A stretch of DNA of 64,000 nucleotides from an uncultured Bacilli bacterium (GCA_963929435.1 CAWVIV010000020.1:4226-68225); one strand, 5' to 3'; numbered from the stretch's first letter, positions 4,690 through 56,058 are shown. Numbers and translations are program-made. Notes: generated by a model not told the origin, from the sequence alone.

Positions 4690-5856
4690 TTAAGTATAGA
4701 TACTATTATAGTATAACATTATATTATTACAAATAGGACAAGTAAGTGGATCTATTTCAAAATTAGTTATAATAAGAGTACGCCAAGAAGTAAGTTTACT
4801 AAAGAATTCTTTCTTTTCCTTAGAAATAATTTTTGTAACTTCAATATCTATTTTAGTTGAATTATGATAAGCACCATAAAATCTAATTTGTTTAAAATTA
4901 TAATCTGGAATATGGATAATGATTCTAGAAATAAACTCATAAGCATGTACTTTTTCGATAACGATTAAATCATCATTATGTCTTTGATACCAAAAGATAA
5001 CAAAGGTACCATCATAATCAATAATTCTAGATTCAGCCATAACAGGGCGTGCGACATATCTGCAAGCATATTTAATTAAATCAATATAAGATTTAAACTT
5101 AGAAGGAGGCGCATAAACATAGAAACCATCTTTGTGTTCAAAATACATTTTATTTTTAATTTTTCTAAATTCATCTTTACCAATATCTTCTTCTAATAAA
5201 TCCAAAAGTACTTTCATAAATCGTTTACGAAATGATGGATAAGCAAAGTAATCAACTTTAACAAATTCTTTACATTTATTAGATATACCACCATCCATTA
5301 AGATCATATGAATATGAGGATTAAAAATAAGACTTCTGCCAAAAGTATGAAGAATAGAAATATAAGCAGGAATAAGCTCTTTCTTTTTGTACTTGTTTTC
5401 AAACCAAGAATTAACAGTAATAGAAGCGGCTTTAAAAAGATAATTAAGTCTTTTTCTATCTTCTCTAAAATATACTCTTAATTCATCTGGAATAGTAAAA
5501 ACAACATGGCGATGTTTACATCTAAATAGTTTAGAAAAGATAGAAGATTCTCTTTGTTTATTATATTTGTTTCCACAAGAAGAACAAAGACGAGATTTAC
5601 AGGTATGAGGAACTATTTTTTCTTCACCACAATTAGGACATTTATAAACGGCATAACCTAAATCCCAAGTTTTACATTTTAACATTCTTTCAACATTAGA
5701 AAATACAACATCTCTAATATTAAGTTTAGGATATGTTTCTAGAAATTTATACCACCAATCTTTAAAAATTTCTTTAATTGTAAATATTACCTTTTTATTT
5801 TTAACTTTATCTCTGTATTGTTCAAATTCCCTATCTTTTTCTGTACATATTATCAT
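4690..5856 (-). CDS. IS91-family transposase (N-terminal zinc-binding domain plus HUH / Y2 rolling-circle domain)
   Basis: CPNCG..HTCKSRLCSSCG zinc-binding region. HTFGRSLIFNPHIHMILMDGG is an HUH-like motif. RYVARPVMAESRI and IRFYGAYHN are typical of IS91/IS801 Y2 transposases. Start taken at MIICTEKD (ATG 5856, GGTGG upstream) rather than the ORF-track start at 5901. Confidence 0.8.
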   Translation of the reverse strand: MIICTEKDREFEQYRDKVKNKKVIFTIKEIFKDWWYKFLETYPKLNIRDVVFSNVERMLKCKTWDLGYAVYKCPNCGEEKIVPHTCKSRLCSSCGNKYNKQRESSIFSKLFRCKHRHVVFTIPDELRVYFREDRKRLNYLFKAASITVNSWFENKYKKKELIPAYISILHTFGRSLIFNPHIHMILMDGGISNKCKEFVKVDYFAYPSFRKRFMKVLLDLLEEDIGKDEFRKIKNKMYFEHKDGFYVYAPPSKFKSYIDLIKYACRYVARPVMAESRIIDYDGTFVIFWYQRHNDDLIVIEKVHAYEFISRIIIHIPDYNFKQIRFYGAYHNSTKIDIEVTKIISKEKKEFFSKLTSWRTLIITNFEIDPLTCPICNNIMLYYNSIYT

Positions 5857-25408: not shown

Positions 25409-26392
25409 ATGTACACAGAGGAAAATGCAAGAGGACGTTTTCCACTTCGTGATATTTTACTGAAAGCAATTGTAGTTATTATTTTCTTGATTTTGATTAT
25501 CTTTATAATAACTAAAATAACTACACCTAATAGTAATGTAAATAAAACAGATTCTAATTATGATAAAGTATTTAGTAAAAACTTAGAAACGATGGAAAAT
25601 GTTGCTTATGAGTACTATACGGCTGATAGATTGCCAAAAGAAATAGGCGATGTTAATGAATTAACTTTAAGAGAGATGATTAATACTAATCTCTTAGAAG
25701 CATTCACTGATGCCAATGGTAAGGCTTGCGATGTTAATAAGAGTTATATTAGATTAACTAAAAATGATGATGATTATACATTGAGAGTAAGTTTGAAATG
25801 TGATGAGAAAGAAGATTATACTCTTACTAAAGTAGGAGAATATGATTATTGTGAACATGATATTTGTAAAAAAGATACTACAAAAGAAACAGAAGAAGAG
25901 ACATCTAAAGAGGCTAGTGATGAAGTGAAAATTACTGAGCCTACTAATGATACTAGTGGTAATATTAGTAATAATACATCTGGTAGTAATAGCAATACAA
26001 ATACTAATAATAATGGTAATACAAATAATCAAGGTTCACAGTCTGAGATAGTTCAAACGACACCTAAGGTCATGTATGAATATAGAAAGGTTAATAATCC
26101 AGTTTTATCAGGCTGGAGTTCATGGAGTAGTTGGAATTATAATAATGATAGATATAGTGCTATAAAATGTAGTGATACTGATGTAAATTGTTTAAGAGAA
26201 GTTCAGTTATATTCAAGAAGAGAAAAAGTAGGTACAGATGATACTGGTAAAGCAGTTTATGCAACAGTAAACTATTATAGTTATAGAACACGAACTTTAA
26301 TAAGTAGTGGTTCTATAGATGTAAAATGGAGTTATTATAATGATACTAATCTATTAAATGAAGGGTATACCTATACAGGTAATACCAAATAA
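25409..26392 (+). CDS. Hypothetical single-pass membrane protein
   Basis: N-terminal TM (AIVVIIFLILIIFIITKI), N/T/S-rich linker, W-rich C-terminal region. No known motif recognised. Confidence 0.55.
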   Translation: MYTEENARGRFPLRDILLKAIVVIIFLILIIFIITKITTPNSNVNKTDSNYDKVFSKNLETMENVAYEYYTADRLPKEIGDVNELTLREMINTNLLEAFTDANGKACDVNKSYIRLTKNDDDYTLRVSLKCDEKEDYTLTKVGEYDYCEHDICKKDTTKETEEETSKEASDEVKITEPTNDTSGNISNNTSGSNSNTNTNNNGNTNNQGSQSEIVQTTPKVMYEYRKVNNPVLSGWSSWSSWNYNNDRYSAIKCSDTDVNCLREVQLYSRREKVGTDDTGKAVYATVNYYSYRTRTLISSGSIDVKWSYYNDTNLLNEGYTYTGNTK

Positions 26393-26405
26393 GGGAGGAT
26401 TAAAT

Positions 26406-28313
26406 ATGTTATTTATTGATAAAAAAAATGAAAAAGGAAAAATTATTGTTGATGCACCAAATTATGAAATAGTAGATTATTATTCAAAGAAAACTAATAA
26501 TGACAACTCAGATAATAATGGTACAGGTAGTGATGACAGAGGTAAAAATGATGACCATTATAATTATGGCACTGTTAGTGATGATTATGATGAAGATGAC
26601 TATTATGATGAAGACGACGATTATGATGATGGTATCTCTTTTGTAGAACAAATTAAAAATTTCTTTGGCAAGTTTAAATATGAACGCAGATCAGATTATA
26701 TAAAGAGAGAAAAAAAGCATTCCTCTTCAATAAAAGGTGTTTATGAATATAATGATTACGATAAAAATGGTAATCTAATAAAGATGTACTGTATTGTACG
26801 TACTACGTTGTTTGGTAGAATTCAATATGAGTTTACTGATAATTCTAAAATTGCAGATATAGCTATAGGACAATATTATACAGATATGGGTTTAGATTCA
26901 AACACAATAGATACACATATTGGCTATAATCTTAAGGAAAGTAAAGATGTATATGATTGGATAAAAAAGAACAATGATACTTATGGTGAAAACTTAGATA
27001 TTAGTATGGAAGATTTTGCTACTGCTAAATTTGCATTTGAAAAGAAATATTATAAATCTACTTTAAAAACAGATAGCAAATTTGCTGAAGCAGAAGCTGA
27101 AGCTAGTGAAACTATGACTTCTGATAGTGATAGTGCAACTAAAATTGGTGATAGCAATAGCGAGGCTATGTCTTCTGATAACGATAGTGAAACTGAGTTT
27201 ATTGATGATGATAATGATGAATACGAAACAAAAATGTTTTATGAAGATGATTTTGAAGATGAATTTGAAGATGAATTTGAAGATGAATTTGAAGATGAAT
27301 TTGATGGCAAAAAAGTTAAAAGAATTGCTTTAAGAGCTGCTTTAGCATCTTTATGTGCATTTGTTGCTATAGGTGCAGTCTTTGCTGTTAAGAAATATCA
27401 TGGCCCTACTTCTAATAGCAGTAAATATGCAACAACATTAGATAATACTGATGATAAAGATAGAGAAAAAGATAATACAATTCCTGATGAAGATGATAAG
27501 ACTGAAGAGATAACTGAAGAACAAACAACTCCAACAGAAGAAGCAACTGTTGAAGATGAAGTTGTAGAAACTTCAGTTGTAACTGGTAGTGAATATGATG
27601 GTAATTATGTTAATACTAATACAACAGTTGCAGATAATAATTATAGTGATTATCAACAACCTGCTACTTCAGCTCCTATTACAACAGCACCAGGAAGTGT
27701 TAATGACTCTTATGTAGAATTTCAAGATCCTAATGCTACTATAAATGATTCTAAAGAAGATGCACAACCTTCTACAGATGAAGAAGATTATGATGGTCTT
27801 ATAGAAGAAGAAACACCATCTATTGATGTTGGTGAAGACAATAGTAGTGAAGATGAAGATTACAGTGAAGAAATAGAAGTACCTGTTGGTGACAATACTG
27901 ATGATGAGTTAGATAATAGCGAAGAGCCACAATTACCTGATTCAGAAGAAACACCTAGTGATGAAATTATTTTTGATGATGAATATCAAAATAATCAAGG
28001 AGCTATTGATGAAGATTATGGTTATGATGAAGAGCTAGGTACTAGTGAGAATCCACAGTTACCTGATCCTAATGAAACGGCTAGTGATGGTGATTATGTT
28101 AGTACTGATACTGACTTTGAACAACCTTCAATAGATGTTGAAGAACCAAATCAAGATATAGAAACAGTTCCTGTTGAACAAGTCGTAGATGCAGCTATAG
28201 AAGCCATGGAAAACGGGGAAGATGTAACTATTTCTGTAAATGAAGATAATATAGTAAGTGTAGAGCAAGTTCCTGTTGAACAAACATATGAAGCAAATGG
28301 TATGACAAGATAG
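26406..28313 (+). CDS. Hypothetical highly acidic membrane protein
   Basis: GGGAGG lies 8 nt upstream of ATG 26406. D/E/Y-rich blocks, a central TM (IALRAALASLCAFVAIGAVFAV), and an acidic repeat-containing C-terminal half with repeated (S)ENPQLPD / (S)EEPQLPD units. Confidence 0.6.
   Translation: MLFIDKKNEKGKIIVDAPNYEIVDYYSKKTNNDNSDNNGTGSDDRGKNDDHYNYGTVSDDYDEDDYYDEDDDYDDGISFVEQIKNFFGKFKYERRSDYIKREKKHSSSIKGVYEYNDYDKNGNLIKMYCIVRTTLFGRIQYEFTDNSKIADIAIGQYYTDMGLDSNTIDTHIGYNLKESKDVYDWIKKNNDTYGENLDISMEDFATAKFAFEKKYYKSTLKTDSKFAEAEAEASETMTSDSDSATKIGDSNSEAMSSDNDSETEFIDDDNDEYETKMFYEDDFEDEFEDEFEDEFEDEFDGKKVKRIALRAALASLCAFVAIGAVFAVKKYHGPTSNSSKYATTLDNTDDKDREKDNTIPDEDDKTEEITEEQTTPTEEATVEDEVVETSVVTGSEYDGNYVNTNTTVADNNYSDYQQPATSAPITTAPGSVNDSYVEFQDPNATINDSKEDAQPSTDEEDYDGLIEEETPSIDVGEDNSSEDEDYSEEIEVPVGDNTDDELDNSEEPQLPDSEETPSDEIIFDDEYQNNQGAIDEDYGYDEELGTSENPQLPDPNETASDGDYVSTDTDFEQPSIDVEEPNQDIETVPVEQVVDAAIEAMENGEDVTISVNEDNIVSVEQVPVEQTYEANGMTR
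27243..27302 (+). repeat. Tandem 12-bp coding repeat (GAAGATGAATTT x4 plus one degenerate unit)
   Basis: Encodes (EDDF)EDEFEDEFEDEFEDEF. Perfect units start at 27255, 27267, 27279 and 27291. Confidence 0.9.
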
Positions 28314-54198: not shown

Positions 54199-54606
54199 AT
54201 GTGTAGAGTTGGAGACATAATTGTTGTTAAAGAGTTCAAAGATAAGAATGGTATTGTTGTTCCTAGACACTCTTTTGTGGTAATTAATGATGAAGCAGGG
54301 ATAATAGAGAGTTACTCATATGATTTTATTTCCAATGTTATGTGTAGTTTTCATAGTGAAAGCCATAAGAAAAGAAAGTTAAAAATTAAAAGTAATCTAG
54401 AAATCACACCTAACAAAATCAATGGTAGAAATGTTAATAACAAAAGTGGTTATATTAGGGCAGATGATTTATTCTATTTTAAGAAAGATAAAATAGATTA
54501 TAAAGTTATCGGTCGTTTAAGTGATGATATGTTAGACAAATTAATAAAACTAGTTATAAATTTAAATGTTGAACACAAAACAAAAGATTTAATCAATAAT
54601 TTATAA
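54199..54606 (+). CDS. Possible MazF/PemK-fold protein (orphan toxin-like)
   Basis: AAGGAGGG RBS. RVGDIIVVKEFKDKNGIVVPRHSFVVIND and ..GYIRADDLFYFKKDKIDYKVIGRLSDDMLDKL follow the PemK/MazF pattern (GDI..v......G.E....RP.vVi.nd ... S.v...qi.tidk.rl...iG.l). Confidence 0.35.
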   Translation: MCRVGDIIVVKEFKDKNGIVVPRHSFVVINDEAGIIESYSYDFISNVMCSFHSESHKKRKLKIKSNLEITPNKINGRNVNNKSGYIRADDLFYFKKDKIDYKVIGRLSDDMLDKLIKLVINLNVEHKTKDLINNL

Positions 54607-54699: not shown

Positions 54700-54876
54700 A
54701 TGTCAAAGAAAAGCATAACAAAGTTTCCTGAAGGTTTTTTTCAACAAAAAAGACCTATACTTAATGCATCAGAGGTCCTTAAAGATTTAAAACCTTTTGA
54801 ATGGGAAGGTGTTATTGATTTTGATGAAGATAAAACTAAAAAAAACAAAAATAAGGTGAGGAGAAATAAAAAATAA
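54700..54876 (+). CDS. Possible small basic-tailed protein (58 aa)
   Basis: GGGAGG lies 9 nt upstream of ATG 54700. MSKKSITKFPEGFFQQKRPILNASEVLKDLKPFEWEGVIDFDEDKTKKNKNKVRRNKK. Not in the ORF track because it is too short. Confidence 0.3.
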   Translation: MSKKSITKFPEGFFQQKRPILNASEVLKDLKPFEWEGVIDFDEDKTKKNKNKVRRNKK

Positions 54877-54891
54877 AATTACAAAAACATC

Positions 54892-54921
54892 TTTACATGC
54901 TAGTACCATTTATGATATAAT
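54892..54921 (+). promoter_or_regulatory. Putative promoter with extended -10, driving the structured leader of the SDR gene
   Basis: TTTACA (54892-54897), 18 nt spacer, TGATATAAT (54913-54921). Confidence 0.5.
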
Positions 54922-54962
54922 CAAAACGTATTAGATGAGGGAAACTTCATATAATATATAAG

Positions 54963-55087
54963 ATGATTTTCTTTTTACGAAAATTATCTCGCTTGTAGAT
55001 GGCCGCGAGTAATAAATTATTCTACGCTGCAGATTATCTCGCTTGTAGATGGCCCGCGAGTAATAAATTATTCTACCGGAAAATCAT
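54963..55087 (+). promoter_or_regulatory. Nested inverted-repeat element enclosing two tandem hairpin modules (candidate cis-regulatory RNA or MITE-like element)
   Basis: Outer 9-bp pairing ATGATTTTC (54963-54971) with GAAAATCAT (55079-55087). The interior holds two copies of a 43/44-nt module, each an ATTA(T)CTCGC / GCGAGTAAT stem whose loop GTAGA is complementary to the TCTAC 3' of the stem. Confidence 0.45.
54983..55076 (+). repeat. Tandem direct repeat, 43 and 44 nt, separated by 7 nt
   Basis: ATTATCTCGCTTGTAGATGGCCGCGAGTAATAAATTATTCTAC (54983-55025) and the same with one extra C (55033-55076). GC-rich cores lie in AT-rich DNA. Confidence 0.95.
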
Positions 55088-55176
55088 ATAAACTGTAAAA
55101 AAGTATCTAATTTTCTCTAAATTATTTACTTTTTTCTTTTGTTTTTCTATACTTAAGTTAGAAAGGTAGGATTTAT

Positions 55177-56058
55177 ATGAAAGATTATTTTGGTTATAAG
55201 GATAAAGTTTGTGTAGTAACAGGTGCTAGTAGTGGTATGGGTAAGGCAACGGTAGAAATGCTAGTAGATTTAGGAGCTAGTTGTTATGCTGTTGACTTAA
55301 ATCCATGTGATGTTAAGGGGATTAAAGAGTTTATAAAATGTGATTTATCTAAAAAAGAAGAGATAGATAACTTATTTAGTAAACTTCCAGAACATATTGA
55401 CTGTTTCTTTGGAGTAGCAGGCTTGTCAGGATCTAAAACAGATTATATGACAACATTTAACTGTAATTACACTGCTAACTTCTATATTACAGAAGAATAT
55501 TTAACTAAGAGAATGAGTAAAGGTGGTAGTATTGTCTATGTAACAAGTACGGCAGGACTTAACTGGAAAGAGTTTAGAAAAGAACAGAGCAAGGTAGTAA
55601 ATGCAAGTACTTGGGAAGAAATAGAGAGTGTAGTAGAACCTCTTGCCAAAATATCACCTGCAACTTTTGCATACATGTATTCTAAAAGATGTTTATCAGA
55701 GTATGCCTGTGAAGCCTCTATTAAACTAGGAAAACAAGGTATTAGAGTTAATAACGTAATGCCAGGCTCTACTGATACAGGTATGAAAGATGAATTTGAA
55801 AAGATGGCTGGTGGCGAAGAAGCCCTTTTAGCAGAAACAGGAGTTGCTCATCGTCTTGCAGAAAGTGAAGAAATGGCTGGACCTATTGTCTTTTTAGGGT
55901 CAAGTATGGCAAGTTTTATCTCAGGAGTTGATTTATGTGTTGATTATGCTGATAACGCTTTAAAAACACTAGGTTATAAGAAAGATAGAGAAAAGGTACC
56001 TGCTACTAATAAATTCATCCTAAAGATGGCTAAGAAAATGATGGAAAAGAATAAATAA
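55177..56058 (+). CDS. Short-chain dehydrogenase/reductase (SDR) family oxidoreductase
   Basis: Cofactor-binding motif VTGASSGMGKA, and active-site S..YxxxK (TST...YMYSKRC). Confidence 0.9.
   Translation: MKDYFGYKDKVCVVTGASSGMGKATVEMLVDLGASCYAVDLNPCDVKGIKEFIKCDLSKKEEIDNLFSKLPEHIDCFFGVAGLSGSKTDYMTTFNCNYTANFYITEEYLTKRMSKGGSIVYVTSTAGLNWKEFRKEQSKVVNASTWEEIESVVEPLAKISPATFAYMYSKRCLSEYACEASIKLGKQGIRVNNVMPGSTDTGMKDEFEKMAGGEEALLAETGVAHRLAESEEMAGPIVFLGSSMASFISGVDLCVDYADNALKTLGYKKDREKVPATNKFILKMAKKMMEKNK

Follow-up and report, generated by a model that had tools for sequence, protein, structure and literature searches.

What is the structured stretch of DNA that precedes a short-chain dehydrogenase/reductase (SDR) gene on a contig from an uncultured Bacilli bacterium? 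The analysis covered a single stretch of this contig, 64,000 nt long (GCA_963929435.1 CAWVIV010000020.1:4226-68225), referred to here as the window. The initial annotation, made from the sequence alone, described positions 54892-55176 as an unassigned leader in which an outer 9-bp helix encloses two tandem hairpin-pseudoknot modules, and considered it a possible regulator of the SDR gene. Several questions arise. To which family does the element belong? Is it tied to the gene that follows? If it is one part of a larger system, where are the other parts? Does it function today? The first can be answered with some confidence. Positions 54892-55147 very probably constitute a CptI-type small RNA gene (CptI is the antitoxin of the CptIN type III toxin-antitoxin system), present in this genome as an orphan array.

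Related loci carry the assignment. When 185,579 species genomes were scanned with a degenerate DNA pattern, seven true relatives and five chance matches were returned, with two modules in six of the seven. A scan of metagenome contigs added four loci (L038, L039, L045 and L047) in each of which a terminator and cptN come after one or two repeats. All true matches from the two scans fall in cptIN or SDR loci, and the closest public contigs are metagenome-assembled genomes labelled uncultured Bacilli or Tenericutes. In L003 (1801-2040) and L034 (minus strand, 5053-5325) a copy of the same unit, made up of promoter, 5' hairpin and two repeats, precedes a G-C-containing terminator, after which comes an open reading frame (ORF) of 162 amino acids. 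The two ORFs score 133 and 143 bits against NCBIfam NF047359, the 'type III toxin-antitoxin system CptIN family toxin', for which the cutoff is 90. The ORF also matches CptN itself (PDB 4RMO_A, E 2e-15) and is recognized by PHROGs; Pfam and PADLOC returned no match for it. The same arrangement of array and then cptN occurs in L031, L039, L047 and L048, and a CptN-family gene is present in all of these as well as in L003, L027 and L034. The window core CUCGCUUGUAGAUGG...GCGAGUAAUAAAUUAUUCUAC is identical to that of the repeats placed directly 5' of cptN in L003, L034, L031, L047 and L039, the agreement extending everywhere except to a variable loop of 4-6 nt. Within this clade the antitoxin repeats are almost invariant and the toxin has diverged to about 72-77% identity. 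Since the copies at sister loci lead into a CptN toxin gene, we identify the modules of the window as CptI-type antitoxin repeats.

The array lies on the + strand and consists of two full repeats of 50 nt, measured boundary to boundary, with a partial repeat end, UUUUUAC, upstream of them. Repeat 1 (54979-55028) opens with the boundary motif GAAAAU (54979-54984). Its first stem, S1, pairs CUCGC (54988-54992) with GCGAG (55005-55009) and its second, S2, pairs GUAGA (54995-54999) with UCUAC (55021-55025), the variable loop UGGCC occupying 55000-55004 and the A/U-rich loop UAAUAAAUUAU positions 55010-55020. Repeat 2 (55029-55078) opens with GCAGAU (55029-55034) and has S1 at 55038-55042 with 55056-55060, S2 at 55045-55049 with 55072-55076, the variable loop UGGCCC at 55050-55055 and the A/U-rich loop at 55061-55071. 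A third boundary motif, GAAAAU(CAU), at 55079-55087 of the same strand, closes it. The common plan is an S1 of 5 bp, a loop L1 of 2 nt, an S2 of 5 bp, the 11-nt A/U-rich loop and about 12 single-stranded nt between units. The variable loop lies between the 5' arm of S2 and the 3' arm of S1 and is made of UGG plus 1-3 nt. As delimited in the initial annotation, the two modules (54983-55025 and 55033-55076) are indeed identical but for one base, an additional C at 55055. Shuffled sequences are expected to contain no match to the 22-nt module core.

The pairing scheme was assessed by covariation. Sixty repeats, 35 of them distinct, were collected across all loci, including those of L051, L054, L055 and L057, whose cptN genes share just 58-61% identity with the toxin of L003; the alignment for covariation holds 25 distinct repeats. 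In this alignment 98% of cells in S1 and S2 are paired. Changes on both sides are seen in five of the ten pairs, among them four of the five in S2, and the observed covariation score was reached by none of 500 shuffles. In a control in which the partners were slid, only 28-55% of cells pair. The four distant arrays keep the layout unchanged with S2 swapped for CCGGG/CCCGG, CUGGG/CCCAG or CGGA/UCCG; S1 and the A-rich loop are nearly unaltered there, the loop sequence UAAUAAAUUAU being nearly invariant. One of them, L051, has a period of 51 nt and 2.2 copies. The H-type pseudoknot first proposed, in which a hairpin loop GUAGA pairs with a UCUAC 3' of the stem, is well founded as regards S1 and S2. 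That proposal also lengthened the stem by ATTA(T)/TAAT, a part that is not conserved. It is 24-72% paired without compensation, and it overlaps the 5' end, expected to be single-stranded, as well as the beginning of the A-rich loop. The distance to UCUAC is 11 nt rather than 12. Nested folding of single repeats gave results no better than shuffles, as expected from a program that cannot model pseudoknots.

Every repeat boundary in the clade carries a motif G-N-A-R-A-U, in the forms GAAAAU, GCAGAU, GUAAAU and GUAGAU, and in the window the motifs begin at 54979, 55029 and 55079, an exact spacing of 50 nt. By analogy with the cut made after A45 in the Eubacterium rectale RNA, this motif is a likely candidate for the site of processing by CptN. 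It also bears on the outer helix of the initial annotation. The complementarity between ATGATTTTC (54963-54971) and GAAAATCAT (55079-55087) is perfect, at nine of nine positions, but the pairing over this distance is not conserved, being broken without compensation in L032, L031 and L003. The 5' arm, AUGAUUUUC, is complementary to the boundary motif GAAAAU followed by U or C and then AU, which stands before repeat 1 (54979-54987) and again after repeat 2 (55079-55087), and the lowest-energy fold pairs the arm with the nearer, first copy. The proposed 3' arm is instead one occurrence of a repeated boundary motif.

How does the element compare with characterized systems? Type III loci are defined by a promoter, tandem repeats, a terminator and a toxin (Blower et al. 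2012, PMC3401426). The cptIN arrays described there have repeats of 40-48 nt in 1.9-3.4 copies, placed 5' of the terminator and toxin gene (PMC3401426, Table 2). In the solved structure from E. rectale, CptI consists of 45 nt folded as an H-type pseudoknot whose two stems are coaxial and whose ends are single-stranded (Rao et al. 2015, PMC4627078). Its long A-rich loop, A27-G35, forms an A-minor twist, a feature common to CptI and SAM-II, and CptN cuts after A45 (PMC4627078). The window element has the tandem near-identical repeats, the -35/-10 promoter, the H-type pseudoknot fold and the homology to cptN-linked repeats that mark a CptIN antitoxin. Like the E. rectale locus (4RMO) it has a promoter ahead of about two direct repeats in tandem, here followed by a probable weak terminator, and its repeats share the two stems of approximately 5 bp, the single-stranded 5' and 3' ends and the long A-rich loop (AUAUAAAUG there, UAAUAAAUUAU here). 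There are also differences. The variable loop is 4-6 nt, where E. rectale has about 2 nt as read from the published repeat sequence; a conserved 5' hairpin and a first-boundary hairpin stand ahead of the repeats; the relatives of the window have a second array 3' of the toxin; and in the window itself there is no toxin gene within 64 kb and an SDR gene comes next.

ToxIN of Pectobacterium atrosepticum pECA1039 is similar in that a tandem-repeat RNA is cut by its own toxin into inhibitory pseudoknot units, and in that toxin-less copies of the repeats exist. Those of phage TE, 'pseudo-ToxI', neutralise ToxN (reviewed in PMC5086642). ToxI differs in belonging with another toxin family and in having a 36-nt repeat, 5.5 copies and a triplex-based pseudoknot. 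Unlike pseudo-ToxI the toxin-less copy in the window is chromosomal, and it has no match in phage or viral collections. BLAST of the whole element against phage and plasmid sequences gave no true match. A loose viral pattern scan returned 13 chance matches, none with S1 complementarity, and a tighter one a single chance match in a coding region.

Upstream of the repeats the near-consensus promoter noted in the initial annotation was readily confirmed. It is a sigma-70-type site on the + strand (54892-54921) with a -35 of TTTACA (54892-54897), an 18-nt spacer and an extended -10, TGATATAAT (54913-54921); it agrees with the consensus at 11 of 12 positions and has the TG extension. The site is conserved in relatives, at an identical position in all related elements, and transcription would start near 54928. 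At that point begins a 5' terminal hairpin (54928-54957, + strand, GUAUUA-G-AUGAGG-GAAA-CUUCAU-A-UAAUAU; -9.5 kcal/mol, z-score -4.4), kept in cptN-linked and SDR-linked copies alike. Its covariation is modest, with one pair altered on both sides and one that shifts among G-U, A-U and G-C. A first-boundary hairpin follows (54961-54989, + strand, -9.7 kcal/mol), in which the first repeat boundary, GAAAAUUAUCU, is paired to a complement upstream of it, AGAUGAUUUUC; the 5' arm of the hairpin includes the segment 54963-54971 that had been assigned to the outer helix. Analogous boundary hairpins with matching changes occur elsewhere, as AUUUA/UAAAU in L047 and AUCUAC/GUAGAU in L039 and L045, and this hairpin may have a role of its own. 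The leader as a whole folds better than its own shuffles (z-score -3.3).

Downstream, an A-U-only hairpin of 17 bp with a U-rich tract (55097-55147, + strand, arms 55097-55113 and 55119-55135; -9.3 kcal/mol, z-score -4.4) occupies the position where cptN-linked copies carry a G-C-containing terminator. It is probably a weak intrinsic terminator; those of L003 and L034 are calculated at -12 to -14 kcal/mol. Read-through into the SDR gene is plausible because the hairpin has no G-C pairs.

Mapping of proteins and element parts onto all loci indicates what became of the toxin. In the first of three architectures (L003/L027, L031, L034 and L001) the order is pheT, orf167, an array A with two repeats and terminator, cptN, orf58, (racemase), an array B and the SDR gene. 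Array B usually has a single repeat with small defects. The array B of L031 has two repeats and its own G-C-containing terminator, after which a separate promoter and leader serve rplU, the gene for ribosomal protein L21 (3217-3700); the array is therefore an independent transcription unit. In L001 cptN (1524-1778) is reduced to residues 78-162 and is a pseudogene. The second architecture, that of the window, L026, L029 and L032, has pheT, orf144, orf58, (racemase), a two-repeat array and the SDR gene, without cptN. In the third, L036 (262-557), the array alone separates pheT from the SDR gene. This array is a hybrid, its 5' part resembling the cptN-linked array A and its 3' tail the SDR-linked copy, and looks like the product of a deletion through recombination between arrays A and B. 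Some loci, then, carry a second antitoxin array 3' of the toxin, and some genomes keep that array alone. Judged from gene order, the interval between pheT and the SDR gene is a variable toxin-antitoxin islet, and what the window has is the copy nearest the SDR gene, now without its toxin.

We also observed that the cptN genes beside the single-repeat arrays of L038 (1051-1519) and L045 (11305-11662) appear frameshifted, with tblastn segments in different frames. Decay or assembly error could be the cause.

Several points weigh against the CptI assignment, or against the activity that it would imply. The gene 3' of the window repeats encodes an SDR and not a CptN-family toxin, and tblastn with two CptN queries, a search that covered the window only, found no cptN-like sequence in its 64 kb. 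At 50 nt the period exceeds by 2 nt the upper end of the 2012 range for cptIN (40-48 nt). No G-C pairs occur in the hairpin that precedes the SDR gene, and a scan for consensus terminators makes no call there. Any activity of the orphan copy today is conjectural, and the genomes with orphan arrays are close kin, their SDR proteins being 95-99% identical.

If the RNA is made as the known systems suggest, the strong promoter would give a transcript of about 220 nt that comprises the 5' hairpin, the first-boundary hairpin, two 50-nt repeats and the weak A-U terminator, which would probably pass some transcription on into the SDR gene. From the E. rectale CptIN complex one would predict that CptN, an endoribonuclease, cuts the precursor at the G-N-A-R-A-U boundaries and that the pseudoknot units so released then keep CptN inactive.

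Does the array still have such a part to play? The strongest competing view concerns present function only and leaves the identity of the element untouched. It holds that the array is a relic: a cptIN locus was lost, its decaying remainder no longer acts as an antitoxin, and selection keeps the strong promoter for use as the promoter and 5' untranslated region of the SDR gene. We consider this quite possible, though somewhat short of an even chance. It fits the absence of cptN from the window and the state of the SDR-linked copies in cptN-containing genomes, which are visibly degraded and usually down to one repeat. The copy in L003 is without its 5' boundary motif (CACAUAUACU), that of L001 has a U-to-A mismatch in S1 and that of L034 a C-to-U change in S2. 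Repeat number also shifts readily between one and two, the deletions ending at the UAC-G boundary. It fits less well with the state of the arrays in the genomes that lack cptN. In all five of these both repeats are intact and every position of S1, S2 and the A/U-rich loop is invariant, differences being confined to the boundaries, the linkers, the variable loop and the terminator loop. In L009 and L010, furthermore, the SDR gene manages without an array in the approximately 100 nt directly upstream of it. The invariance of the repeat cores is, however, weak evidence for continued selection because the orphan-array genomes are so closely related.

A retained antitoxin or immunity function is the less favoured alternative to decay, though one we would give a modest chance. 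High specificity of CptI antitoxins for the cognate CptN has been reported (PMC4627078). Since the cores in the window match the toxin-linked arrays of sister strains, the orphan should, by this analogy, neutralise the CptN of the clade. A more explicit proposal, which we think unlikely, is that a toxin-less array is kept by selection, either as a chromosomal anti-addiction or immunity RNA against CptN arriving with mobile elements or from recombining sister strains, or as a toxin-responsive leader whose cleavage by CptN at a boundary would uncouple the SDR mRNA from its promoter-proximal 5' end.

The gene that takes the place of cptN in the window deserves attention here. Designated orf144, an ORF of 144 amino acids, it runs on the + strand from 54172 or 54199 to 54606, the ATG at 54199 being probably the true start and giving 135 amino acids. 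It has no Pfam or NCBIfam match. The AlphaFold2 model (mean predicted local distance difference test score 93.9) is predicted to have the MazF/Kid fold, with Foldseek matches to MazF/Kid at probability 1.0 and template-modelling scores of 0.56-0.73. A 58-amino-acid ORF with the motif I/L-x-K-F-P-x-G-F-F ... P-x-x-W follows (54700-54876, + strand). The MazF-fold gene fills the slot taken by orf167-cptI-cptN in sister genomes, and the 58-amino-acid ORF comes next, as it does after cptN there. Other genomes preserve such pairs of a MazF-fold gene and a small ORF, with one or the other first, a prophage end being among the locations. In L003, L031 and L034 the small ORF comes after cptN, so that one small protein is found beside two different RNase-fold toxins.

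Could the array then be the RNA antitoxin, or third component, of this neighbouring gene and the small ORF, in an unconventional module of toxin, protein and RNA? The exact coincidence of the MazF-fold gene with the cptN slot invites the idea, as does the presence of the small ORF after either toxin, and both ToxN and CptN are related in structure to Kid/MazF (PMC4627078). In L059 a promoter-to-terminator stretch resembling an RNA gene follows a homologous gene pair. We nevertheless hold such a module to be very unlikely. No CptI-like repeats lie close to the homologous pairs of L059-L066, L036 keeps an array with neither gene, and the reported specificity of CptI for its cognate CptN speaks against a change of partner. 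The stretch in L059 (3176-3450), on the 3' side of a MazF-fold/54-amino-acid pair and upstream of tsaE, is of interest in itself. It has a TTGACA-18-TAGAAT promoter, approximately 150 nt of non-repetitive, G+C-richer sequence and a clear terminator, resembles a small RNA gene in the same position as the CptI array of the window, and has no Rfam match at E up to 1.

We return to the CptI-type array and to its relationship with the SDR gene. This gene (55177-56058, + strand) encodes 293 amino acids with an adh_short match and is closest to the PRK12428 subfamily, under the cutoff for that model. A weak promoter-like site, TTTACT-17-TATACT (55125-55153, + strand), lies just 5' of its ribosome-binding site. 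With nine of 12 positions its score is not above shuffle background; it could be the gene's own promoter. Orthologues of the SDR gene were traced down a ladder of identity. The leader is there at 95% (L001) and at 83% (L003), with one module each. It is absent upstream of orthologues at 75-78% (L006-L008, L011 and L012), and in L009 and L010, where the SDR is 91% identical, no array is found in the upstream sequence that is available. Nothing in this ties conservation of the element to the SDR gene.

The metagenome contigs L002, L005, L009 and L010 end inside or beside the SDR leader. Near-identical arrays about 1 kb apart, or variation in repeat number between strains, could explain where these contigs stop.

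The riboswitch idea raised by the initial annotation can be spelled out as a new riboswitch or other cis-regulatory leader whose tandem pseudoknots would respond to a ligand and, by way of the hairpin 3' of them, act on the SDR gene. It has points in its favour. The leader is long and conserved, stands upstream of an enzyme gene, ends in a terminator-like hairpin and folds better than its shuffles. Its topology presumably resembles that of preQ1-I, SAM-II and similar small aptamers built on a pseudoknot. These riboswitches share with the element a compact H-type pseudoknot and an A-rich loop in a helix groove, and sometimes occur in tandem. The window element differs from them in its lack of an Rfam match, in having no steady association with a single gene family and in its partner, which by analogy would be a protein, CptN, and not a metabolite. 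The Rfam scan that had been proposed as a check was carried out with Rfam 15. The leader has no match at gathering thresholds, and a permissive scan with E up to 10 gave three chance-level matches, all of them 5' of the modules save for a few bases. Regulation of the SDR gene finds no support in the company that the element keeps, as it also precedes cptN (L003, L034, L031, L039 and L047) and, in L031, rplU, and SDR orthologues at the lower identities do without it. All conserved features are accounted for by homology to CptI arrays, and we regard a riboswitch as highly improbable.

The remaining proposals, a 125-bp miniature transposable element whose terminal inverted repeats are 9 bp long, or a tandem operator for a DNA-binding protein, find some encouragement in the perfect 9-bp inverted repeat around the modules and the DNA palindrome within each, but are practically untenable, the first since the window has one locus and no dispersed copy, relatives have at most two copies, always within one locus of a few kb, there are no true copies in the phage, plasmid and IMG/VR collections and the inverted repeat is not conserved, the second since pairing on the + strand survives through G-U wobbles (GUGAG in L003, UUUAC in L034) and compensatory changes, a signature of RNA base pairing and not of DNA symmetry. 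Two further readings were tried and set aside. Across the module junction the sequence UCUAC...UUGUAGAU has what we take to be a likeness to the repeat handle of Cas12a-type CRISPR arrays. Relatives with a single module have GUAGA ahead of UCUAC, however, and the window has no cas gene and no spacer structure. The second module might also have been a recent duplication private to the window, given one module at the SDR gene in L001 and L003, but two-repeat arrays are the norm across species.

The surroundings are those of an ordinary chromosome of an AT-rich organism. On the 3' side of the SDR gene are genes for a transglutaminase-like protein, def and ftsW. The sole Rfam match in the window is a T-box leader (RF00230, 49787-49994, 103.6 bits) upstream of pheS/pheT. 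Elsewhere, at 27242-27304 within a long ORF (26358-28313), there is a near-perfect 12-nt tandem repeat, TGAAGATGAATT, with 5.2 copies and 98% matches.

What does the assignment mean? A false riboswitch candidate is removed and placed in a described class, detail is added to a thinly studied family, and cptIN loci are found in genomes of uncultured gut Bacilli or 'Tenericutes' and in gut metagenome contigs. The new points are few: the orphan copy adjacent to the SDR gene, the second array 3' of the toxin in sister genomes, the conserved 5' hairpins and the clean covariation of S2. No description of chromosomal orphan type III antitoxins was found in the literature searched, in which phage pseudo-ToxI is the nearest precedent. 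Should selection indeed maintain a toxin-less array, the regular presence of a second array 3' of cptN would be part of the design of the system rather than an accident. Should the orphan be functional, it would be the RNA counterpart of the orphan protein antitoxins that have been proposed to protect against addiction modules.

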